Assembly (NCBI GenBank): GCA_913009335.1
Contig: CAJVXN010000003.1
Coordinates: 3,899-67,898 of the forward strand
Length of the DNA stretch: 64,000 nt
From: an uncultured bacterium
GTDB lineage: Bacteria; Omnitrophota; Gorgyraeia; Ghiorseimicrobiales; Ghiorseimicrobiaceae
Direction of reading: 5' to 3'
Part shown: piece after piece, positions 2,558 through 62,827 of the stretch
Layout: each line of letters starts with the position of its first letter
Position numbering within the stretch: the stretch's first letter is position 1
The notes under the pieces: model-generated
Told to the model about the DNA's origin: nothing
The model's input: only the letters and a program-made list of their open reading frames with translations
Database searches by the model: none
Made by a program: the position numbers and the translations under genes

Positions 2558-4459
2558 TTAAGCATTTATATTATAATCTGTCACAAGCTCATTTATAAGA
2601 TCTTTAACTGAAACTATTTTATCTATTCTGTCAGCGTTTGCGCCTGCCATTACAAAACCATCATCCAGATTTCCGCGATAGGCATTTACTAACGCATTGG
2701 CAATACAATAATTTGCCGCATATGGATCACATGTTCTTAAGCACCTATAAGGACAGGTAAATTTTATCTTTTCCCCTGATTCAATCCTTTCAACAAATTT
2801 ATTTCGTATTACTCTTGCCGGCATACCGACCGGACTAAGAACTACAATTGTGTCATCTTTTCCGCATTTTAAATAAGCTTCCTTGTATTCCTTAGATACA
2901 TCGCACTCATTGGTGCAAACAAAACGAGTAGCCATTTGTACACCACTTGCTCCTAATTTCAACATTTTAGCTATATCTTTACCGGTAAATATCCCACCTG
3001 CTGCTATTACAGGAATTTTCTTACCAGATTCTGATTCAAACTTTTTAACAACATTTAAAACCTCTAGCAATAAATCTTCAAGAGATGGTGCTTCCTCAGT
3101 TATAATTTCTCCGAATTTAAAACCAATATGCCCGCCCGCAAGAGGACCTTCTAAAACTAGCGCATCAGGCGCTCGATTATAACGCCTTAGCCAAGTTTTA
3201 CAAATCAATTCTGTTGCTCTACCCGACGAAACAATTGGAATAAATTTTGTTTTTGAATCTCTAGATAGAGAAGGTAAATGAAGCGGCAATCCTGCACCTG
3301 AGATAATAGCCCCTACCTCTTCTTCAATTGCGACTTTCGCTAAATCATCATAATTAGTAAGAGCGCACATTATATTTACACCAAACGGTTTTGAAGTAAG
3401 ATGCTTAGTCTCTTTTATCATTTCCCTAAAAGATAATTTAGACCTTTCTTCATATGTTAGATCCTGCGGTCCTTCTTCTCCTAATCCAACACTAGCAATC
3501 ACCCCAACCGCCCCCTCATTAGATACAGCAGCAGCCAATGACGCAGTTGAGACTCTCACGCCCATTCCTCCCTGAATTATTGGAGGATTTATAACAAGAT
3601 CACCTATAACTAAATCCGGTAATTTTTTCTTCGTCATACAGCAGCCCATCCTTCCCTTGTAAAACACATACATTCCCCAGGGATCAATTTCTGTATTAAT
3701 ATCAGAGTACCCGAGATCTACTAACCATTTTTCAATCAGTTTCGGATCCCTATAAAACAATTTCCATTCTTTCCCGCTTTTTGTTATGCCGACTTTCTCT
3801 ATTAATTTACGATTTGGGCTATCACGTTGAGTTATAAATAATAGAAGTCCGCCAGGTTCTAGATAATCTTTAATTGTTTTTAAAGAAGATACGACTGATT
3901 CATCATCTAAATATTCATACAAACCGGATGAGATAACTACATTAGGCGACCAACCTCTTTTTTCTGAAAGTCGCTTATGATGAGACCCGATACGCAAAAT
4001 ATTAGATTTTCTATACAGCATGGGTCGATTACCCGCCATCTTCCTCCCATGGTCGAGAGAATGTTTATCGATATCTAAGCATAAAACCTCTATGCGATCT
4101 TTCATATCATCAGTTATAAGCTCAACTAGATATCTTGCAGGACCGGAGGCAAGATCCACGATACGTGTTTTTTTATTTTTGGCTATATTTTTATTTATTT
4201 CATCTTTTAATATGCTAATTACTTTGTCTTTTCTATATCTAGTTGCTTTAGCTGCCGGTAAATTAAGAAGAATTCTGTCTATTATTCTACCTAATTTCGT
4301 ATATCCTTTTGCCTCATTAGAATATATATGATCGAAATTTATTCCTGAGTCTGCGTATCCAAACATACTCTTTCTGCCCAGACGACTTGAGAAAATAAGC
4401 GGCTTTACAATCCGCTTATAAAAAAAATCTTCTATTTTTCCTAAAATAGGTAAACTCAT
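2558..4459 (-). CDS. Fusion protein: class I SAM-dependent methyltransferase (N-terminal) + FMN-dependent nitronate monooxygenase/NMO-family oxidoreductase (C-terminal)
   Basis: N-terminal half carries VDLASGPARYLVELI (SAM-MT motif I). C-terminal half carries VINPPIIQGGMGVRVSTASLAAAVSNEGAVGVIA, typical of NMO/2-nitropropane dioxygenase-like TIM barrels, and the Cys cluster CPYRCLRTCDPYAANYC. Paralogous to the 363-aa NMO at 49645-50736. Confidence 0.65.
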   Translation of the reverse strand: MSLPILGKIEDFFYKRIVKPLIFSSRLGRKSMFGYADSGINFDHIYSNEAKGYTKLGRIIDRILLNLPAAKATRYRKDKVISILKDEINKNIAKNKKTRIVDLASGPARYLVELITDDMKDRIEVLCLDIDKHSLDHGRKMAGNRPMLYRKSNILRIGSHHKRLSEKRGWSPNVVISSGLYEYLDDESVVSSLKTIKDYLEPGGLLLFITQRDSPNRKLIEKVGITKSGKEWKLFYRDPKLIEKWLVDLGYSDINTEIDPWGMYVFYKGRMGCCMTKKKLPDLVIGDLVINPPIIQGGMGVRVSTASLAAAVSNEGAVGVIASVGLGEEGPQDLTYEERSKLSFREMIKETKHLTSKPFGVNIMCALTNYDDLAKVAIEEEVGAIISGAGLPLHLPSLSRDSKTKFIPIVSSGRATELICKTWLRRYNRAPDALVLEGPLAGGHIGFKFGEIITEEAPSLEDLLLEVLNVVKKFESESGKKIPVIAAGGIFTGKDIAKMLKLGASGVQMATRFVCTNECDVSKEYKEAYLKCGKDDTIVVLSPVGMPARVIRNKFVERIESGEKIKFTCPYRCLRTCDPYAANYCIANALVNAYRGNLDDGFVMAGANADRIDKIVSVKDLINELVTDYNINA

Positions 4460-7623: not shown

Positions 7624-9195
7624 TTATCTATTAACTGCACACATTTTTATCTTCTCAAATGTTGTCTCATCTATACGCTTGTTACCCCAATAAAAATCAG
7701 AAATACCAAAACCGTGTTTTTTACCTAAAGCGGTTATCTCTTCTATTTTTTCAGGCGTAATATTTCCTCTTCCGAAACTAAAGCTTTCGTAGCGCTTCTC
7801 CAACGCTAGAATAATCGCTTCACAGAAACACCCATAACTTACCCCTGCGTCAGGCAAACCTATATCAATCGGTATTTCAATCTTCGTAGGCGTTTTTGCA
7901 AGGCCCCCTGAAAAAACAAGGATATCATCCCTTGTTGTAGGAGCATAGGATATATTTTTCGGATACCCTACATCACAAATTATCGAACCCGGCTTAAACC
8001 AATCAATCTTAAGTATAGAAGCAGTAGCGCTTGCCGCGGCAATTACTATATCCGCATCGTTTATCGCTGACTGGTTATCCGTAGTAGCTACAATACGTGC
8101 TTTACGTTTCTTAGCCAGCTCAGACCTTAAACTACGCAGATTAGACTTTGTCCGTCCGGTAACAGCAAGTTCTCTCACCTTGCCTGCCAGCACTCGCGCG
8201 CAGCCGCTGCCGATATCACCTGTCCCGCCGACTATGGCCACTTTTAAATCTTTTAAATCTTTACCTAAAAGCTTAACTGCTCGCTCTACTGCCTCTATTA
8301 TCAAGGCAACCGTATAGGTATTGCCTGTTGTAATAGCGATATCTACCTCTTCATTTATCTGTTGGCCAAGTCTCTCTCCCACAATAGAGGTAAACCCTCC
8401 TAATGTTACGATACCAACACCATGTTTCTCTGCTATTTTACATGCTCTTACTACCTTTGAATAAACTCCGTGAAGATCACTAGACAACATCTCAGGAACA
8501 AATGTACAAACAATAAAACATCCGGAAGTTGTAACACCTATCTTTGATTTAAATTCCTTCATCTCGTGTATCTTAAAAGAAGGAGTCATGGTAAAAAGCT
8601 TAGTTAAGAATTCTTCCGAAGGCATCTTAAAATCCGGATTCATAGTTTTAAGACAGCGCGCTAAATGATTAAAGTTATAGAAATGCCCCAATACACCAAA
8701 ACCTGCCAGCTTTGTAAGATTACCCTGTTTAAAACTAGCATACTTAATCGAAATCAAACGACGCTCCCATGCACCCAACATTGCCGCAAAGTTTTTAGCC
8801 AGCATATTCCTGATATATTCATCCGCGAATTCTTTAATCGCAGGTATACCCACTCTTAAATGAACGCTTACAACAACTTCCGTACCTTCGGGATGATCGT
8901 TAAATTTCCATTCGCCGTAAAATTCCTGCAGGTCGCCTTCTATTGCTTTAAACGAAATTACATTTCCTCTAAGCTCTAAAGTATCTTCCTCCACCCAGCT
9001 TATCGGTACTCCATCGACCTGTACGCGCCACTTTGTCTTCATCGTATTGTGCTTACGACTCAACACCTTAGCCTCTTTTACGGTAGGCATATAACTAGGA
9101 AATTCCCAAACACGGGTTGCGAGACGAATTATACTAGATTTCTGCGCGTGTATAACTTTTGATATATTTATATGTATTAAATCATCCTTCGGCAT
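7624..9195 (-). CDS. Fusion: SRPBCC (polyketide-cyclase/START-like) domain + acyl-ACP reductase (AAR)-like NAD(P)-binding oxidoreductase
   Basis: The C-terminal 350 aa share blocks with cyanobacterial acyl-ACP reductase as I recall it: LGGFTSIVG, TTGNTYTVA, IVGGTGDIGSG, DVGYPKN. The N-terminal ~140 aa resemble SRPBCC ligand-binding domains. Confidence 0.55.
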   Translation of the reverse strand: MPKDDLIHINISKVIHAQKSSIIRLATRVWEFPSYMPTVKEAKVLSRKHNTMKTKWRVQVDGVPISWVEEDTLELRGNVISFKAIEGDLQEFYGEWKFNDHPEGTEVVVSVHLRVGIPAIKEFADEYIRNMLAKNFAAMLGAWERRLISIKYASFKQGNLTKLAGFGVLGHFYNFNHLARCLKTMNPDFKMPSEEFLTKLFTMTPSFKIHEMKEFKSKIGVTTSGCFIVCTFVPEMLSSDLHGVYSKVVRACKIAEKHGVGIVTLGGFTSIVGERLGQQINEEVDIAITTGNTYTVALIIEAVERAVKLLGKDLKDLKVAIVGGTGDIGSGCARVLAGKVRELAVTGRTKSNLRSLRSELAKKRKARIVATTDNQSAINDADIVIAAASATASILKIDWFKPGSIICDVGYPKNISYAPTTRDDILVFSGGLAKTPTKIEIPIDIGLPDAGVSYGCFCEAIILALEKRYESFSFGRGNITPEKIEEITALGKKHGFGISDFYWGNKRIDETTFEKIKMCAVNR

Positions 9196-9778
9196 CGATT
9201 AACTCCTTTACGGCTTTTCTGATTTTAAAGATTCCTTCCTGTAAACTTATATCATCAATTAAATCACCAAATTCCTTAAGCAAATACAGTGGTTTACCTA
9301 TTTTTAACGTGATAGGTACGAATTTAGGTAATTTAGCTCTCCTAGGAAGAGCCTCATAAGTACCTAAAATCGCGCAGGGAACTATTGGCCTGCCTGTCTT
9401 AACCGCAAGTAAAGCTACCCCTCTCCTGAATTCAGAAAGGGTTCCGTCCTTGCTTAATCTCCCTTCGGGAAATAAACCTACGTTCTTATTCTGCATCAAT
9501 AAAGAAATGGCCTTATCCGATGAACGACCGCTCGGAAGAGCCTCAACACTTTTAAAAAACCACCTAAGCCACGCTATCTTATAAAAACCTCGAAAGGCAA
9601 TACAAGAGATCTTCTTTGGCATTGTTGCCATAATAACTAGGCCGTCCAGATAGCTTGCATGATTCGCAACTACTATAAAATTGCTTTTCTTGGGCAGATT
9701 TTCTTTCCCTTCTACCTTAAGCCGAAAGAACACCTTAAGTATAATTAAAAATATTGCTTTAAATATCCAATATAACAT
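9182..9778 (-). CDS. 1-acyl-sn-glycerol-3-phosphate (lysophospholipid) acyltransferase, PlsC family
   Basis: HxxxxD motif (VANHASYLDG) and FPEGRLS (FPEGTRS-like) motif. The start codon abuts the stop of the upstream GIY-YIG gene. Confidence 0.7.
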   Translation of the reverse strand: MLYWIFKAIFLIILKVFFRLKVEGKENLPKKSNFIVVANHASYLDGLVIMATMPKKISCIAFRGFYKIAWLRWFFKSVEALPSGRSSDKAISLLMQNKNVGLFPEGRLSKDGTLSEFRRGVALLAVKTGRPIVPCAILGTYEALPRRAKLPKFVPITLKIGKPLYLLKEFGDLIDDISLQEGIFKIRKAVKELIDAEG

Positions 9779-10039
9779 TTACCCCGTTAGAGATAGGAAA
9801 CGCTTTAATCTATTTTTAAGATAGCGTTTACCCATGCCTGTTTTTAAGTATCTTTCTCTATCAAGCGCATCATCTTTATTCTTACTTGCCTCGTAATATA
9901 TTAGTTCAAAAGGGCCTCGGTTCTTAGTAGACACTACCTTACTTTGCTCATGTTCCTTAAAGCGTTTCCGTAAGTTACCCGTTGTTCCTGTATACCATTT
10001 ATTATCTGCTAAGCTTCTAATTATATAAACATAATACAT
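9779..10039 (-). CDS. GIY-YIG nuclease family protein (YhbQ/UPF0213-like, 86 aa)
   Basis: YVYIIRS...WYTGTTGNLRKRFKEHE matches the GIY-(10-11)-YIG catalytic module. The ORF sits exactly between 15-bp perfect inverted repeats. Confidence 0.6.
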   Translation of the reverse strand: MYYVYIIRSLADNKWYTGTTGNLRKRFKEHEQSKVVSTKNRGPFELIYYEASKNKDDALDRERYLKTGMGKRYLKNRLKRFLSLTG

Positions 10040-10061
10040 AAGTTGTTATCTCTAACGGGGT
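9781..10061. mobile_element. Small inverted-repeat element carrying the GIY-YIG ORF (putative autonomous copy of a MITE-like family)
   Basis: Left arm ACCCCGTTAGAGATA at 9781-9795 is perfectly complementary to TATCTCTAACGGGGT at 10047-10061 (17 bp with one mismatch). The same termini bound ~120-bp copies at 10721-10850 and 26867-26988. Confidence 0.4.
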
Positions 10062-10342
10062 CCAGCCTTAAAGTTTGCTTTTATATTATTTTTTTGGCGG
10101 CTATAGTTCTCCTTCTCCTCTATCCAAGCATCAATGGAAGACTTTTTAAAGCGCCAGTGTTTCCCTACCTTCATCGCCGGAATTTGTCCCGCGCGCGACC
10201 AGAAATAAAGTGTCTGCTTTGGAATTTTTAAATAACTACTTACTTCTTCGATTGTAAGAATTTTATCTTCTGACATAATTATTTCCCTCTCATCACTCCA
10301 AGACTGAAGACGCAGCACTCGCAACATCGCCAGAAACATCAC
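10052..10342 (-). CDS. Helix-turn-helix DNA-binding protein (excisionase/MerR-like HTH_17 family); probable true start at internal MSEDK near 10276
   Basis: LTIEEVSSYLKIPKQTLYFWSRAGQIPAMKVGKHWRF is a typical Xis/AlpA-type HTH. The C-terminal codons (AGPR*) run into the right inverted repeat of the GIY-YIG element. Confidence 0.45.
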   Translation of the reverse strand: MMFLAMLRVLRLQSWSDEREIIMSEDKILTIEEVSSYLKIPKQTLYFWSRAGQIPAMKVGKHWRFKKSSIDAWIEEKENYSRQKNNIKANFKAGPR

Positions 10343-10874
10343 TATAGCGTATCGTGCCGTTTGTATCTACGAAAAAGGATTTTGCGCCGCTTAAACCCCA
10401 AGCCTCAGGATAAGCAGTAGCAGTAAAACTAATAACATTACCGGCCAAAATAAGTTGATACCCATTCTTGCTCACCGTATCCGCGTTAAAAGTATCATCA
10501 AGATAAGGAGGATCAGATGCAGGAATAGTAAATGAAGCTAAGCTACTGGGATATCCAGGGTTAGCTGCCCTGTAATTTTGCGCTGCTTCTGAGACTAGGC
10601 GTAAATTAGAGATTGCTGCTGATTCTTTAGCATTTACCCGCGCACGCAAAAAATCAGGTATAGCAAGAGAAAGTAATAGCATAACAATTGCCACTACTAT
10701 CATAATTTCCATCAGGGTAAACCCCGTTAGAGATAATCCGCCATGTTTCTTCGGCGGATGTAAATTCACTTTAATATTTGGAGAAAAACGCATCTTACCT
10801 TCAATAGCTTGTGGTAAACCAAACGTATGTTTTGGTATCTCTAACGGGGTAAAACCTTTTGACTCTCGATACAT
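10293..10874 (-). CDS. Type IV pilin-like protein (prepilin N-terminal cleavage/methylation domain) with unusually long leader
   Basis: G^FTLMEIMIVVAIVMLLLSLAIP class-III signal. The C-terminus (FFVDTNGTIRYSD...SVLE) is paralogous to the pilin at 13901-14335. The leader contains a translated MITE copy. Confidence 0.6.
   Translation of the reverse strand: MYRESKGFTPLEIPKHTFGLPQAIEGKMRFSPNIKVNLHPPKKHGGLSLTGFTLMEIMIVVAIVMLLLSLAIPDFLRARVNAKESAAISNLRLVSEAAQNYRAANPGYPSSLASFTIPASDPPYLDDTFNADTVSKNGYQLILAGNVISFTATAYPEAWGLSGAKSFFVDTNGTIRYSDVSGDVASAASSVLE
10721..10850. repeat. MITE-like copy B of the ACCCCGTTAGAGATA inverted-repeat family (inside the pilin leader coding region)
   Basis: IRs at 10721-10735 and 10836-10850; internal hairpin ATCCGCC...GGCGGAT adjacent to the left IR. 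Confidence 0.5.
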
Positions 10875-14504: not shown

Positions 14505-15016
14505 AAGAAAAAATAAATGAAACCACAACTTATGTCGCTGTATTCCATAAGTTGTATGGCTGAATTTACCCCGCCGTTGGCGGGGTTTAATTCGCAGACG
14601 CCCTTTTGGCTTTAACTTATACCGCTTACGCTCCATAAGTCATCTGCTCATTAAAAAACCCATTCGAAAGAATGGGTACAAGTTTAACGGATTCACCAAT
14701 TTAGTGAATACGGCAACCCGACAATCATATCCCTTAATAGCTAAAAGACTTAGACTCGCGGCTTTGTGCCCTATCCTTTCAGATAGTTTACCTTTGCCTT
14801 TAGAGATATTAAATACCTTATATTCTATAATAATACCGTCTAGCCTAAACGCTAGATTATTGAAACTTACTATTACCTCTAAAGAACAATACATATAACT
14901 TACTTATCAAAGAACTCACTTTTCCTATTACAAATATAGCATACAAACTTGCTAATTTCAAGGTCGATAGAGAATAAAAAGTTGTGTTGCATCCGGTTGA
15001 GGCTAAACCTCAACCG

Positions 15017-18695: not shown

Positions 18696-19593
18696 TATCT
18701 AAAATATTTTGCATATCATCCGGTAAAACATGTTCAAACTCTATAAATTTTCCGCTTGTTGGATGTATAAAGCCTATATACTTAGCATATAAAGCAAGCT
18801 TTATAGACTTATCTTTCTTTCCGTAAGTTACGTCTCCTAATATCGAATGCCCTAATGATGCCATATGCACACGCAACTGATGTGTGCGGCCCGTCTGAGG
18901 AGTCAACTCTAAATGCGAAAATTTGCTATAGCGTTTTATTACCCTGTATCGAGTTGAAGACGGCCGTCCCCCAACCTTAAAATTTACCGCCATCTTCTCG
19001 CGCCTGGTAGGGTGTCTGCCAATAGGCAAATCAATAACACCTTCATCAAATTCTACCACGCCCGATACAAAAGCAACATAAATCCGCTTTATGGAATGCT
19101 CGGAGAATTGTTTACTTAAATGAAGATGCGCGGGATTATTTTTTGCGACAAGTAAAAGCCCTGCGGTATCTTTATCCAGCCTATGAACTAATCCCGGCCG
19201 CTCAGGATTTATACTTGATAATTGCGTAGAATAAAACAACAAAGCATTCACAAGCGTACCGTCTAAATTTCCGGATGCAGGATGTACGACTAATCCCCGG
19301 GATTTATTAACTACCAATAAATCGTCATCTTCGTAAACTATCTCTAAAGGGATATCCTGAGCTTTTAGTTTTTTCTCAGGTTCGGGAGGAATAACTACGC
19401 GGATTACCTGGCTTGGTTTTATTTTCTGGTTAGCTTTGGCAGGATTTCTATCTACACTGACATCTCCGGAACGAATAAGCTTTTGTATAAAGACTCGTGA
19501 GAAAGCCGGCTTCCCCTCGCTTAGTTTCTCAACCAGATATAGGTCCAACCTTATATTCGCACCTTCCTCGACTTCGAATATATACTCTTGCAT
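18682..19593 (-). CDS. rluD: 23S rRNA pseudouridine synthase, RluA/RluD family
   Basis: N-terminal S4-like domain and HRLDKDTAGLLLVAKN catalytic motif. Confidence 0.8.
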   Translation of the reverse strand: MQEYIFEVEEGANIRLDLYLVEKLSEGKPAFSRVFIQKLIRSGDVSVDRNPAKANQKIKPSQVIRVVIPPEPEKKLKAQDIPLEIVYEDDDLLVVNKSRGLVVHPASGNLDGTLVNALLFYSTQLSSINPERPGLVHRLDKDTAGLLLVAKNNPAHLHLSKQFSEHSIKRIYVAFVSGVVEFDEGVIDLPIGRHPTRREKMAVNFKVGGRPSSTRYRVIKRYSKFSHLELTPQTGRTHQLRVHMASLGHSILGDVTYGKKDKSIKLALYAKYIGFIHPTSGKFIEFEHVLPDDMQNILDNENK

Positions 19594-21279: not shown

Positions 21280-21423
21280 TTAAGTGCCTCCAAAATCTCA
21301 ATAACGAAACAACTTGTGGAGTTTTAAAACGACATAAGTTGTATTTCAGAATTGATCCCGTTGAGTGTATCAAAACTATCGAAGATAATTTTGATACTTC
21401 TTACGAAACGGGATAACCTTTAA

Positions 21424-26732: not shown

Positions 26733-26866
26733 TTAATGAAACCATAGCTTACGAACACGAAAGTGTGAGTAAGTTATTTGGTCGAATTAAACCCCGCCAT
26801 CGGCGGGGTACATCCTTTTAGACCCAATCCAGTCATACCATAATAACATAACTTCTAATATGGTCA

Positions 26867-26988
26867 ACCCCGTTAGAGATAGGTCGTCTTTGGACGACCG
26901 TATATTTATCGAAAACTTTATATAAACTCTGTGCTTCTTAATCAGGAACTACCGCACTAAATAGTTTAGCTGTTATCTCTAACGGGGT
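26867..26988. repeat. MITE-like copy C of the ACCCCGTTAGAGATA inverted-repeat family
   Basis: IRs at 26867-26881 and 26972-26988; internal hairpin GGTCGTC...GACGACC next to the left IR; intergenic between yggS and the glutaredoxin gene. Confidence 0.5.
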
Positions 26989-27059
26989 CAATAAAAAGCT
27001 TAAAAAGTAGCTTAAAAACGCCACCCTTGAGCTCACCCTAAACCTTTGCCAAAATTTAT

Positions 27060-44771: not shown

Positions 44772-44946
44772 TAATATTTAATGCTAAATTAACACGCATT
44801 TTTTAAACGCTCTCTTCAATGAGACCACAATTTAGAGAACAAAGTGAACCTAAATTGTTTGCTCGAATTGATCCCGCCGAATACTTGAAAATTATCGTGA
44901 GAGAATTTTCAAGTAAGCTCATGAGGCGGGACACTTCCTCAATACT

Positions 44947-55566: not shown

Positions 55567-56979
55567 TTAGTTCGAGTCTTGCTTGGGGAGCCATTGGGCA
55601 CGCTTAGCCCTATCCTTAAGGATAGGGCTAATTTTTTGGCTTAAATTTCGAGCAGCGTCCGCCGCCGACCGGACGATGGTCGAGGAAACGGAATTTTCAT
55701 TTTCAAAACTTATTTTGTAATAAAGGGTTAGCGCAATTTCCTCCTTTGAGTATTTAATGCTTTTGATATAGGTTTTTGACCAGAAATTGCGCTCTTCTCC
55801 CCTACATTTTGACATGTTCTTCATGAAAGATTGGAGGGTTTGTGCGAAGATTTCATGTGAAATCTGCGGGGGCTCGAAGGTTTTTTCGAGTCCAGTGCGG
55901 CCACCCATTAGGTACGAATTAAGGCAGAAAATCAAACTTTCAACATATTGCCGATCCTTCGCTATCCGGGAGAGATTTTCAAAGATAATATCTTCTAATT
56001 TTTCCGCGTTTATCTGCCTGACCGAGCAATCCTTCCAGTCCCGCGTAAATGTTTTTGTACAGCGATAGTAATAGTATCGCTTCATTTTTTTATTTTTTCT
56101 CTTTTTATTTGTGAATGTTGGTGTCATTATTGATCCGCAATCTTTACACTTAACCAGTCCTGCCAGAGTATAATGCTTGTAGAGTTTTTCTTTTACGATT
56201 TTTTCCTTATGTCTAGTTTGGGCCAGCTTGAAAGTTTCCTCTGTGATAATTGGCTCATGCAGTGCATCATATAATTTGCCTGCATAACGCATTTTTCCGG
56301 TATAGGCAATATTCCTCAATGCATAAGCAACTGCATGTTTTGAAAAATATTCCCCCTTCCTGCCTCTGATATTGCTTGTTTTTAAATCTCTGTAAACTTT
56401 AAATAAAGAGCCGTGCTGAGTATAAATACCGTAGATGGACCTTACAATCTCTGCCTCTTTTTCTTCTATGACTAATTTTTTCTCGACTCTCTTATACCCT
56501 AATGGTACTACTCCCCCATTCCACATCCCTTTTTGTGCGCGCTGAAGCAGCTTATCTCTGGTTCTCTCACTTGTTAACTCTCTTTCAAATTGCGCAAATG
56601 TGAGCATGATATTGCGCAAAAGCCTTCCGGACGGCGTTGACGTATCAAATCTTTCCGTAACAGATATAAAATCCACTCCGTGTTTTTCAAATAACTCAAT
56701 AAGCTGATAAAAGTCTTTTGGCGATCTGGTCAACCTGTCAATTTTATAAGCCATGACTAGATTTATCTCTCCTTCGTGTATATCCTGGAGCATTTCAGTC
56801 AACGCCGGCCGGTTTACATTTGCGCCGGTAAACCCCGCATCAGAATAAACCTTGTATATCTCCATATCCTCCTGGCTCTCAATGAAGGATTTAATCTTAT
56901 TTTCCTGCGACTCGCATGAATTAAACTCAACCTCTGCTTGCATATCCGTACTCACCCGCGTATATATTGCACACTTCAT
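55567..56979 (-). CDS. Large serine recombinase (resolvase/invertase N-terminal catalytic domain + recombinase domain + zinc ribbon)
   Basis: AIYTRVSTDMQ (catalytic Ser), YKIDRLTRS, recombinase domain, CKDCGS...YYYRCTK zinc ribbon. Confidence 0.8.
   Translation of the reverse strand: MKCAIYTRVSTDMQAEVEFNSCESQENKIKSFIESQEDMEIYKVYSDAGFTGANVNRPALTEMLQDIHEGEINLVMAYKIDRLTRSPKDFYQLIELFEKHGVDFISVTERFDTSTPSGRLLRNIMLTFAQFERELTSERTRDKLLQRAQKGMWNGGVVPLGYKRVEKKLVIEEKEAEIVRSIYGIYTQHGSLFKVYRDLKTSNIRGRKGEYFSKHAVAYALRNIAYTGKMRYAGKLYDALHEPIITEETFKLAQTRHKEKIVKEKLYKHYTLAGLVKCKDCGSIMTPTFTNKKRKNKKMKRYYYYRCTKTFTRDWKDCSVRQINAEKLEDIIFENLSRIAKDRQYVESLIFCLNSYLMGGRTGLEKTFEPPQISHEIFAQTLQSFMKNMSKCRGEERNFWSKTYIKSIKYSKEEIALTLYYKISFENENSVSSTIVRSAADAARNLSQKISPILKDRAKRAQWLPKQDSN
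55606..55662. repeat. Left terminal inverted repeat of the island (contains palindromic hairpin + T-run)
   Basis: Sequence as quoted for the element; lies in the last codons of the recombinase ORF (encodes ...SPILKDRA...). Confidence 0.5.
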
Positions 56980-60343: not shown

Positions 60344-60382
60344 GCGCCTTTATTTTTTTACTACACCACGAACCATAAAAAA

Positions 60383-60450
60383 CCCTCCGCCATTTATAGC
60401 GAAGGTTTTACTTTTTTAACGTCCGGGAATTCCCCCTTCAAACGCGGGAC
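60383..60450 (+). repeat. 68-bp direct repeat unit (copy 1) with terminator-like hairpin + T-run and GGGAATTCCC palindrome
   Basis: CCTCCGCCATTTATAGCGAAGGTTTTACTTTTTTAACGTCCGGGAATTCCCCCTTCAAACGCGGGAC; second full copy at 60788-60855, partial copy at 60717-60757. Confidence 0.5.
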
Positions 60451-60787
60451 GATTAACTCCTGATTAATTTTAATATAGCCTTAATTTAAGCATCTGTCAA
60501 GATTTTTAACAATAAGAGTCGACTCTCTATCTACACCTAATCCTGAAATCCAAATTCGAGCTGCCTTTCGTTTCGAGCTCTATGAAAGGCAACACGTTTA
60601 CAACTCAAGACTGCATTACGGTACAAAAATCCAGGCAGCCAGGTTAATGCTTTTATAATTCCTTGCATGACAACCCCCTCTCCTTAAAAGTCCTTCTCCG
60701 GTATAATCCCATCAATGAAGGTTTTACTTTTTTAGAGTGGAGGTTCCCCCTTCAACTCACCACTATTATAGCCCCTAAAAACAAAAA

Positions 60788-60855
60788 TCCTTCGCCATTT
60801 TTAGCGAAGGTTTTACTTTTTTAACGTCCGGGATTTCCCCCTTCTAACGCGGGAC
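60788..60855 (+). repeat. 68-bp direct repeat unit (copy 2)
   Basis: CCTTCGCCATTTTTAGCGAAGGTTTTACTTTTTTAACGTCCGGGATTTCCCCCTTCTAACGCGGGAC. Confidence 0.5.
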
Positions 60856-61940: not shown

Positions 61941-62253
61941 CTCCCCCCCCTCCTATAACACTTTTTGAAAAATTAATCTTCTATAAACCAAGTTGCTTAA
62001 TCATTATACTGCTCGTGAATAATATCTGTCAATAGAAGTTAGGGAAAGCGGATTCGGAGCGCAAGAAACGGAAGACAGCGAAGCTGGCTGACGCCGAGCA
62101 CTGAAACCGCTCGGGTGGGTGAGGAATATAGGTTTTTGGCCGCACAAACAAACCCTCCAATCTTTCATATAGAATCTTCCTTATAATTCTGAAAATTAAA
62201 ATTCCGTTTTCTCGAGCAGCGGACGGTCGCACTCAAGAGTAGGCTTCGCACGC

Positions 62254-62310
62254 GCGGACGCTGCTCGAAATTTTAGCCAAAAAACTAGCCCTATCCTTAA
62301 GGATAGGGCT
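62254..62310. repeat. Right terminal inverted repeat of the island
   Basis: GCGGACGCTGCTCGAAATTTTAGCCAAAAAACTAGCCCTATCCTTAAGGATAGGGCT. Confidence 0.5.
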
Positions 62311-62827
62311 GACCATAAAGAATGCCTCCCCAGAAACTCCCAAGATCAAACTATTGAGATAATTCTATCCAACTCAATACACGGCTGTAGGAATAATCTT
62401 TAGGCCCCGCCGCCCGTACATTCGTCGTTTTACTCCTCAGTATTTCCTTCGGTCACTGGGCGGGCTCGTTTATCTCCCGTTTCGTGGCTTTAAAATCAAC
62501 CAGATAGGTTGATTGAGCGGCATTTTCAAATTTCACAAGAATAGTGAAATTTGTGCCGCAAAACACCAATCAAGGCGCAAAAAAATATGGCGGCTGGGGT
62601 GCACTCAAGAGTAGGCTTCGCACCGGGACAGCCGCCATTTAAATTATCAATAACTACTTCGTCTATTATCTCAAGCTGGTTAGTTCCACTAGATTATGCA
62701 CAAACACCTTAACAACAGACTGAGCATAATAACCGGGGTTTTAGCAATATCCGCATCTTTTTTTATTCTGCGGCAGACTTCCTCATTTCAAAATCTGCTG
62801 ATTTCCTATAGTTTACTAAAATAATTA

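Follow-up and report, generated by a model that had tools for sequence, protein, structure and literature searches.

A GIY-YIG nuclease gene enclosed by terminal inverted repeats and its short derivatives: a candidate family of very small mobile elements in Omnitrophota and other uncultured bacteria

We analyzed a stretch of 64,000 nucleotides of contig CAJVXN010000003.1 (hereafter the window) from an uncultured bacterium of the phylum Omnitrophota, in which a first-pass annotation had noticed a small gene encoding a GIY-YIG nuclease between inverted repeats, together with two shorter sequences sharing the same ends. This observation is real and was confirmed in the window sequence, and its interpretation, a GIY-YIG element with derivatives resembling MITEs (miniature inverted-repeat transposable elements), is supported by the results presented here. 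The best explanation is probably that the gene-containing unit (copy 1) is full-length, that the two others (copies 2 and 3) are internal-deletion derivatives and that the nuclease acts on the folded ends of the element. It is very probable that units of this type constitute a family of mobile elements.

Six exact copies of the 15-mer ACCCCGTTAGAGATA are present in the window, arranged as three convergent pairs: 9781-9795(+) with 10047-10061(-), 10721-10735(+) with 10836-10850(-), and 26867-26881(+) with 26974-26988(-). When up to 3 mismatches were allowed, 8 matches were found against 1.32 expected, a number reached by 0 of 100 shuffled sequences; the two extra matches, at 19339 and 42499, carry 2-3 mismatches and are chance-like. 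The first pair delimits copy 1 (9781-10061, minus strand), a 281-bp unit with 15-bp terminal inverted repeats and a CCCC..GGGG core spanning 9782-10060, which encloses the nuclease open reading frame (ORF; 9779-10039, minus strand) as had been annotated. In the orientation of the gene, the 3'-terminal repeat (9781-9795) doubles as the codons L-S-L-T-G, and the 5'-terminal repeat (10047-10061) lies 7 nt upstream of the ATG, a distance given as 8 nt in the first-pass annotation. The stop codon (9779-9781), thought to lie inside the left repeat, overlaps it by one base only, the last five sense codons being inside; this TAA is supplied by the flank and is immediately followed by the ATG of a plsC gene (TAAATG). 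The same termini do bound two ORF-less units, copy 2 (10721-10850, minus strand) and copy 3 (26867-26988, minus strand, intergenic), whose interiors of 100 and 92 nt, respectively, contain no ORF of their own. Read on the minus strand, copy 1 is flanked by TGGA on its 5' side (10061-10064) and by TAAA on its 3' side (9778-9781). Perfect 4-bp repeats, which the first-pass annotation had not mentioned, flank copy 2 (TAAA, left 10718-10721, right 10850-10853) and copy 3 (TCAA, left 26864-26867, right 26988-26991).

As also reported initially, a hairpin is found directly inside the left repeat of all three units, and its stem sequence differs in each. In copy 1 it is subterminal and imperfect (AAACGCT/AGCGTTT, 9798-9829, minus strand) and corresponds to the codons for GKRY..LKRF, while perfect 7-bp hairpins abut the repeat in copy 2 (ATCCGCC/GGCGGAT, 10736-10759, minus strand) and copy 3 (GGTCGTC/GACGACC, 26882-26899, minus strand). 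Folded as single-stranded DNA (ssDNA), the short units of the window are predicted to form a terminal stem of 14-15 bp, against the 3' arm of which the hairpin is stacked (z -5.3 to -6.4). An Rfam scan of the elements gave no match at E<=1, and they therefore correspond to no known RNA family.

The only gene of copy 1 encodes an 86-aa protein with a single GIY-YIG domain (Pfam PF01541, E=4.9e-17) covering residues 1-68, followed by one C-terminal helix. Its motifs, conserved residues and predicted fold place it in the GIY-YIG nuclease superfamily. The AlphaFold (AF2) model, with a mean predicted confidence (pLDDT) of 92.7, combines a sheet of three strands with two helices and, at the C-terminus, a long basic helix. 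Among solved structures it is matched best by BH0048, a UPF0213 protein (35% identity), by Slx1, which is a structure-specific nuclease, and by the catalytic domain of I-TevI. More than 3,800 homologs across phyla, with identities of 65-80%, were found in the databases. The best 120 of them are 69-81% identical to the window protein, the identical sequence itself being left out, and many come from very short contigs, a frequent situation for repeats. The alignment shows invariant residues Y3/Y5, Y16-T17-G18, R24/R26, H30, E62 and N76, with all catalytic residues preserved, and the comparison of homologs indicated strong purifying selection. The C-terminus KRYLKNRLKRFLSLTG (..KRFLSLTG) is nearly invariant as well; since the tails that follow ..SLTG in some homologs are unrelated, the conserved block stops exactly at the Gly codon. 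The NCBIfam search returned no family above its cut-off, TIGR01453 scoring 30.6 bits against a cut-off of 56.

The genomic surroundings of homologous genes were then compared by a scan using one genome per species, which yielded at least 538 loci (individual loci are designated below by L and a number). They belong to Omnitrophota, Elusimicrobiota, many classes of Patescibacteria, Planctomycetota, Desulfobacterota, Bdellovibrionota, Nitrospirota, Clostridia and others. Many of the loci analyzed come from the Hainich groundwater wells. At 58 of 64 homologous loci, from more than 10 phyla, both repeats were recovered (xCCCGTTAGAGAnn and its reverse complement), so that flanking repeats are a regular feature of the orthologs in relatives. 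The first repeat lies 16-25 nt upstream of the ATG, its reverse complement constitutes the last codons, and the full-length units so defined measure 274-291 bp. In outline, a full-length unit (about 275-283 bp) is made up of the 5' repeat, an interior that varies, the subterminal hairpin and the 3' repeat. Two full-length copies occur in different contexts of one genome in two cases (L002/L007 and L052/L074). The repeat is also no generic palindrome scattered over the genomes: within 1.3 Mb of loci it bounds units with a bimodal spacing, either of at most 150 nt (168 pairs) or of 250-300 nt (74 pairs), at precise sites with TNNA flanks, and a 1-3 kb class is absent. Neither of the two outcomes that the first-pass annotation had named as refuting its idea was thus seen. 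The presence of a near-identical gene in more than 10 phyla implies that the 280-bp unit has often moved horizontally as a whole. Searches of plasmid, phage and viral-contig collections did not find the element and returned distant GIY-YIG homologs only.

Within the repeats the core CCCGTTAGA is fixed, and the remaining positions covary between the two arms. The terminal pair is C:G in 54 units, T:A in 28 and A:T in 3; position 12 is G:C (74) or A:T (15), and position 14 is T:A (53), C:G (25) or A:T (12). Altogether, 122 repeat cells were changed on both sides, against 51.5±5.5 in shuffled data (0 of 500 shuffles reached the observed value). The 3' end of a unit can be described as a hairpin followed by TATCTCTAACGGGG and TNNA.

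Besides the full-length units, 25 short units bounded by the repeats and 29-187 nt long are present in the loci selected by the protein. In metagenomes, a scan for the repeat pair of the window with an interior of 75-105 nt and two perfect 14-nt repeats yielded at least 120 loci, and hairpin statistics were calculated from 108 distinct short units. Of the two ends, just one carries a strong hairpin (mean -11.0 versus -2.1 kcal/mol), and a perfect stem of at least 6 bp abuts exactly one repeat in 70 of the 108 units, compared with 2.7 in shuffles. This hairpin always adjoins the repeat that matches the 3' end of the gene; 18 distinct stem 7-mers were counted, with loops mostly of 3-4 nt. The interiors of many short units open with the 5' leader and ATG of the gene (for example ACGGCTCATGGTTTAC), and many close with GGAAACGCC-loop-GGCGTTTCC, in which the ..AAGCGTTTCC end of the gene is paired to a newly matched arm. 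Three short units keep the last 18 codons intact. Because both the leader/ATG region and the last codons of the gene are retained, the short units are, to judge from their sequences, internal-deletion derivatives of the long unit. The earlier proposal that pairing is preserved while sequence is not holds for these short units, as seen from the 70 stems and 18 stem 7-mers, and not for the coding copies; since the latter lack codon covariation, selection for pairing is apparent in the short units only. Minimal palindromes of 29-70 nt with the same arms were also observed (L041, L014 and L035).

The sites occupied in the window and elsewhere provide further arguments for mobility. In two relatives, L206 and L207, a gene with an HTH_17 (helix-turn-helix) domain is directly followed by plsC, 81% and 68% identical, respectively, to the plsC of the window, with no nuclease gene at the junction. 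The repeat core is absent from L206 and gives one isolated 8-nt match about 1.25 kb away in L207. By comparison of these sequences, the HTH-plsC junction is an orthologous empty site for copy 1, and the alignment places the insertion at TGGA, the A of which is the A of the plsC ATG. In the window the plsC-type acyltransferase gene (9182-9778, minus strand) starts directly after the element, and the HTH_17 gene (10052-10276, minus strand), which is not part of the element, has lost its native stop and ends in the 5' repeat at a TAG. The insertion had been said to alter the 3' end of the HTH gene, and this is correct with the addition of a second event: the native C-terminus reads ..NNIKAKL, and a 1-nt deletion in an A run has removed the stop in the window. 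A link between the HTH_17 gene and the element was rejected, with 1 weak match in 204 loci.

Copy 2 is inserted in frame and without a stop in a type IV prepilin-like gene (10293-10874, minus strand), at the junction between leader and mature protein, a position that the first-pass annotation had not mentioned. As found, the prepilin reads MYRESKGFT/PLEI...SLTGFT/LMEIMIVV (slashes mark junctions); deletion of 10722-10849 and one TAAA restores MYRESKG/FTLMEIMIVV, a canonical leader with its N-methylation motif. The prepilin G/FT junction was used as an insertion site in six independent cases. An empty allele of the interrupted pilin was not found in the protein collection searched, and a related contig of a metagenome-assembled genome (MAG), L205, which represents the same population (99.99% identity), carries both insertions. 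Start codons are also recurrent sites, where A/TGAA becomes ..GGGA/TGAA.. and the nuclease TGA overlaps the regenerated ATG, as are TTGACA boxes. Insertions at these three kinds of sites may be tolerated, the host motif being regenerated just downstream. In 41 of 62 full-length units, a host ORF of at least 70 aa either starts at a distance of -1 to +12 nt relative to the Gly codon or is fused to it, and neighboring ORFs are co-oriented with the unit in 77 cases against 10. No promoter is evident in the element, and the nuclease may ride on host expression, which would account for this co-orientation and for insertion where a host motif is regenerated downstream.

Fusions between nuclease and pilin were seen in several loci. 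In L013 and L023 (both at 2850-3600), a stopless full-length GIY-YIG ORF reads in frame into a type IV pilin (..RFLSLTG/FTLIEIMLVV..), and the ORF of L023 in addition has no ATG of its own and is fused to the upstream pilin leader. The fused proteins of this set are P0075 and P0109; P0075 is joined at the same Gly to a Flp-like pilin (..SVTG/QAMLDYVILTAIV). A peptidase could release both fused proteins, since the invariant ..LTG end mimics a prepilin peptidase site. Beside copy 3, on its hairpin side, the 24 nt just outside the unit (26841-26864) are 71% identical to the prepilin coding flank of copy 2, and they read ..LTILEVMLL.. as compared with ..FTLMEIMIV.. of the prepilin, with no pilin gene there. 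The similarity could mean that a remnant of a pilin gene has persisted, that the flank was duplicated together with the unit or that such targets are preferred.

Identical 4-nt flanks were found on both sides of 88 of 217 distinct units, against 11.6 by permutation, the commonest being TGAA, TAAA, TTTA, TCAA and TTGA. A logo of 65 oriented sites showed T at position 1 in 63 and A at position 4 in 57, giving the target rule TNNA, with a purine before it in 48 sites and C after it in 29. When units were oriented by their gene or hairpin, TGAA, TAAA or TAGA occurred as 3' flank in 40 of 62 full-length units versus 15 of 62 as 5' flank (p=1e-5), and in 29 of 103 short units versus 12 of 103 (p=0.005). 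The inverted repeat extends into the 4-nt flanks no more than by chance, the flanks being inverted complements no more often than chance predicts. The flank pattern is asymmetric and does not correspond to a classical target duplication. It can be read in two ways: the 3' tetranucleotide may travel with the element, which would insert 3' of a similar target tetranucleotide, in an IS608-like manner, or staggered ends with donor-derived overhangs may be ligated to a cut target. A heteroduplex model found no clear support, one-mismatch flank pairs exceeding the permuted value only mildly, as detailed below. Tandem units share one tetranucleotide in L004, L065 and L104. In L104, L065, L004, L151, L159 and L194, a unit stands directly against the end of another (..CTAACGGGG-TNNA-CCCCGTTAG..). 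These arrangements suggest that the 3' end of the element with its tetranucleotide is itself a favored target, on which tandem arrays form.

Taken together, these results lead us to lean towards the GIY-YIG nuclease as the mobilizing enzyme, acting on folded single-stranded ends. In such a mechanism the nuclease would cut the ends of the element after recognizing a folded single strand, namely the 14-15-bp terminal stem and the hairpin stacked against the 3' arm, by analogy with the Ssn nucleases discussed below, and cleavage would take place at the TNNA junction. Joining would fall to the host, GIY-YIG enzymes being capable of hydrolysis only. The tetranucleotide on the 3' side, in most cases TGAA or TAAA and also the stop codon of the gene, would be carried along, and the 5' tetranucleotide would be the target. 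A more far-reaching proposal, which we hold tentatively and at a little less than an even chance, is that among known autonomous DNA transposons the ~280-bp units are the smallest and form a new prokaryotic class, in which an 86-aa nuclease, guided by the folded single-stranded ends, excises the unit and cuts TNNA, host ligation or replication completes the process, and the ends have evolved as ORFs (..SLTG / TPLEI..) that spare host genes upon insertion at start codons, prepilin cleavage junctions and -35 boxes.

Several observations weigh against this account. To our knowledge, GIY-YIG nucleases have no strand-transfer or religation chemistry, so another joining step is needed. About 60% of the units lack matching flanks, though both flanks keep Y-N-N-R, and the mismatch persists in the metagenome set with perfect 14-nt repeats on both sides; one-mismatch pairs are mildly above permutation among the non-matching units (39 versus ~25). 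Copy 1 itself has different flanks, TGGA (5') and TAAA (3'), the empty site of the relatives being TGGA. Conversely, a true duplication accounts for the perfect repeats TTTA, TTGA and TCAA better than does a tetranucleotide that is carried along, and for this reason no single flank model fits all units. The imperfect hairpin of the coding copies shows no compensatory codon choice (6.60 pairs versus 6.56 on permutation). The covariation of the arms is expected equally from base pairing and from one protein binding both ends. No full-length copy was found within 805 kb around the 120 short units, among the matches listed, and no occupied/empty polymorphism within one population was found in the protein collection or in the related contig L205. 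Finally, part of the spread across phyla may be due to binning errors in MAGs.

An unlikely account, in our opinion, is that the units are ordinary MITEs mobilized in trans by an unlinked DDE transposase, the GIY-YIG gene being a passenger or a selfish rider. Terminal inverted repeats with 4-bp TNNA flank repeats are a classical DDE signature, for which IS1380/piggyBac-like or IS5-like enzymes, presumably with 4-bp duplications and ends starting with CC, would be candidates; the lack of strand-transfer chemistry in GIY-YIG enzymes and of full-length copies near the 120 listed short units points the same way. However, no transposase lies between such repeats in 1.3 Mb of loci, where the spacing is at most 150 nt or 250-300 nt, and the linkage of gene and repeats in 58 of 64 loci across phyla, with the last codons of the ORF being the repeat, speaks against a passenger. 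Asymmetric flanks, 60% of them unmatched despite perfect 14-nt repeats, are also unexpected for fill-in duplications. A larger parent element with a transposase was rejected as well: the two pairs spaced by 2.4-2.8 kb hold housekeeping genes, rpsB/tsf and kdsC/kpsF-like. A trans-acting transposase elsewhere in the genomes is possible, since the sampling was skewed towards the nuclease and the short units.

We regard as improbable that the family is a domesticated, host-serving system resembling Ssn, which cuts ssDNA at cognate repeats for uptake, recombination or repair and is no longer a transposon. The size and architecture of the protein, the logic of a gene with its cognate repeats, the typical presence of one or few gene copies with many repeats, and strong purifying selection would all suit such a role. 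Units located within genes or at the start codon of a host gene, where host motifs are restored, an empty orthologous site, tandem and multi-copy full-length units, and a near-identical gene in more than 10 phyla, indicative of frequent horizontal movement of the whole unit, are in contrast properties of a mobile element, and the short units appear to be deletion derivatives, not an independent motif. Still less can be said for the invasion of the loop of an older palindrome by a free-standing homing endonuclease gene, an explanation we consider very improbable, in which the repeats would be the halves of a split target and the short palindromes its empty form. The minimal 29-70-nt palindromes with the same arms and a catalytic domain that is that of GIY-YIG homing enzymes agree with it. 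The ~120-nt units, however, keep the 5' untranslated and ATG region and up to the last 18 codons and hence stem from the long unit, the coding sequence that makes up the 3' arm is conserved along with the protein, and an 86-aa single domain lacks a DNA-binding domain of the I-TevI type. A GIY-YIG homing endonuclease of the I-TevI/Seg type was rejected as the identity of the protein: Pfam and the AF2 model revealed no second domain in the 86 aa, TIGR01453 stayed below its cut-off, and phage and viral matches were distant only. The account preferred here remains that of a full-length unit whose nuclease probably acts on folded ends.

The closest described system is the Ssn family, represented by a 94-aa single-domain GIY-YIG protein (CDD cd10448) that cuts only ssDNA, beside a hairpin repeat called NTS or SRM (Chenal et al., Nat Commun 2025, PMC11893778). 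The ssnA gene has such repeats on both sides, hundreds of repeat copies are present per genome, and the authors call the NTS-ssnA-NTS layout IS-like (insertion sequence-like) and liken it to REP/RAYT (PMC11893778). The role proposed for SsnA/NTS in Neisseria is the modulation of uptake, recombination or repair. Compared by description and by the published SRM motif, both families have a single-domain GIY-YIG protein of ~90 aa, the 86-aa window protein falling within the Ssn pattern of about 90-100 aa in size and architecture, a gene between cognate repeats that are also dispersed in many copies, and a hairpin with oriented flanking sequence as the likely recognition unit. They differ in that the window gene is enclosed by the two arms of a single long-range inverted repeat and ssnA by two local hairpins, in the coding 3' arm, and in the hosts, here uncultured phyla. 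The motif HGTCWYN(0-2)YYVSBRHN(0-5)WNVSBRGN(0-2)RNCYNB had 0 matches in the window (0.16 in shuffles) and 0 within ~500 nt of the gene in 80 homologous loci. For Ssn, neither terminal repeats nor flank duplications are reported (PMC11893778), and the TNNA flank repeats, deletion derivatives, insertions within genes and empty site of the window family have no reported counterpart there.

With IS200/IS605 and REP/RAYT the family shares subterminal hairpins, a plausible single-strand mechanism and many non-autonomous copies per protein gene. The apparently element-borne 3' tetranucleotide and the 5' tetranucleotide as target recall IS200/IS605, with which the flank asymmetry and the empty site of copy 1 are consistent. 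Those systems, however, use an HUH (Y1) tyrosine transposase, whereas the only ORF here is a hydrolytic GIY-YIG enzyme, and IS200/IS605 elements differ by the true terminal inverted repeats, the 40% matching flanks and the size of the window family (~280 bp versus at least 600-700 bp). Classical transposons with terminal inverted repeats and MITEs are similar in having such repeats in long and short copies, a 4-bp T..A flank repeat and deletion derivatives; they are several-fold larger, and the window family has no DDE transposase between its repeats and flanks that are asymmetric and often unmatched. As a lead only, piggyBac may be mentioned, which we take to have a TTAA target and ends starting with CCC. 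UPF0213/YhbQ, Slx1 and I-TevI-type enzymes have the catalytic fold in common with the window nuclease, which is distinguished by its basic C-terminal helix GMGKRYLKNRLKRFLSLTG and by the absence of an extra DNA-binding domain and of an intron context; they are not bounded by the repeats of the element. The first-pass statement that no such transposon type has been described stands in so far as our literature search found no GIY-YIG element with terminal repeats and MITE-like derivatives, and needs qualification in view of the IS-like Ssn/NTS layout already published (PMC11893778). In a groundwater study, a GIY-YIG protein is listed among the genes that other bacteria have received from Patescibacteria.

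The chance that the window family forms a transposon class of its own, and a new one, is substantial. Should the nuclease turn out to be the mover, this would possibly be the smallest self-contained type of transposon, not half as large as the smallest insertion sequences and built on a simple hydrolytic GIY-YIG domain, a chemistry found in no established prokaryotic transposon class, and the IS-like layout left open for Ssn/NTS would become a testable mechanism. For such work the family offers clear ends, a target rule, deletion derivatives and empty sites, along with natural variants in the thousands. Among uncultured groups, it is abundant in Patescibacteria, Omnitrophota and others, where it interrupts or fuses with pilins and gene starts, and it therefore matters for annotation, assembly and the tracing of horizontal transfer. 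Small structure-guided ssDNA nucleases with covarying recognition sites would also be of practical interest as tools.

Other small GIY-YIG subfamilies with flanking repeats of their own were found in the fetched loci, in L162 and in L151/L194, which suggests a general association between small GIY-YIG genes and flanking repeats, the clade of the window being its most transposon-like case. The small GIY-YIG gene of L162 has its own 16-bp inverted repeat CCCGCACCCAGAAAAT. Tandem YhbQ-like GIY-YIG genes, 42-48% identical to the window protein, occur at L151:1340-2088 and L194:249-1541; they adjoin TATCCCGCC-GAAT-GGCGGGATA hairpins that resemble the Neisseria NTS repeats, and copies of the hairpin flank at least one gene. 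Some other small GIY-YIG genes lie between tRNA genes (L112, L194:1170). A second repeat family is present in the window at 14546-14594, 21332-21381, 44848-44897 and 26783-26813, as an inverted repeat ACAACTTATG..CATAAGTTGT followed by GAATTnAnCCCG. Two of its copies contain a GC hairpin ACCCCGCC-nnnn-GGCGGGGT, one copy lies ~55 nt from copy 3, and the family resembles the sequence just upstream of the different small GIY-YIG gene of L162.

Among the remaining features of the window, a c-di-GMP-I riboswitch was detected at 14709-14802 on the minus strand (72 bits, E=3.5e-12), upstream of a cluster with at least 3 prepilin-like genes, in which N-terminal repeats were found at 10615, 11537 and 14217. 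A segment of 6.3 kb is enclosed by an inverted repeat of ~260 nt (55584-55843 and 62148-62332, 84-93% identical over its three aligned segments), one arm of which falls in the 3' end of an ORF of 470 aa. Distinct from it, a direct repeat of 73 nt (93%) occupies 60378-60450 and 60783-60855, its two copies being 405 nt apart.

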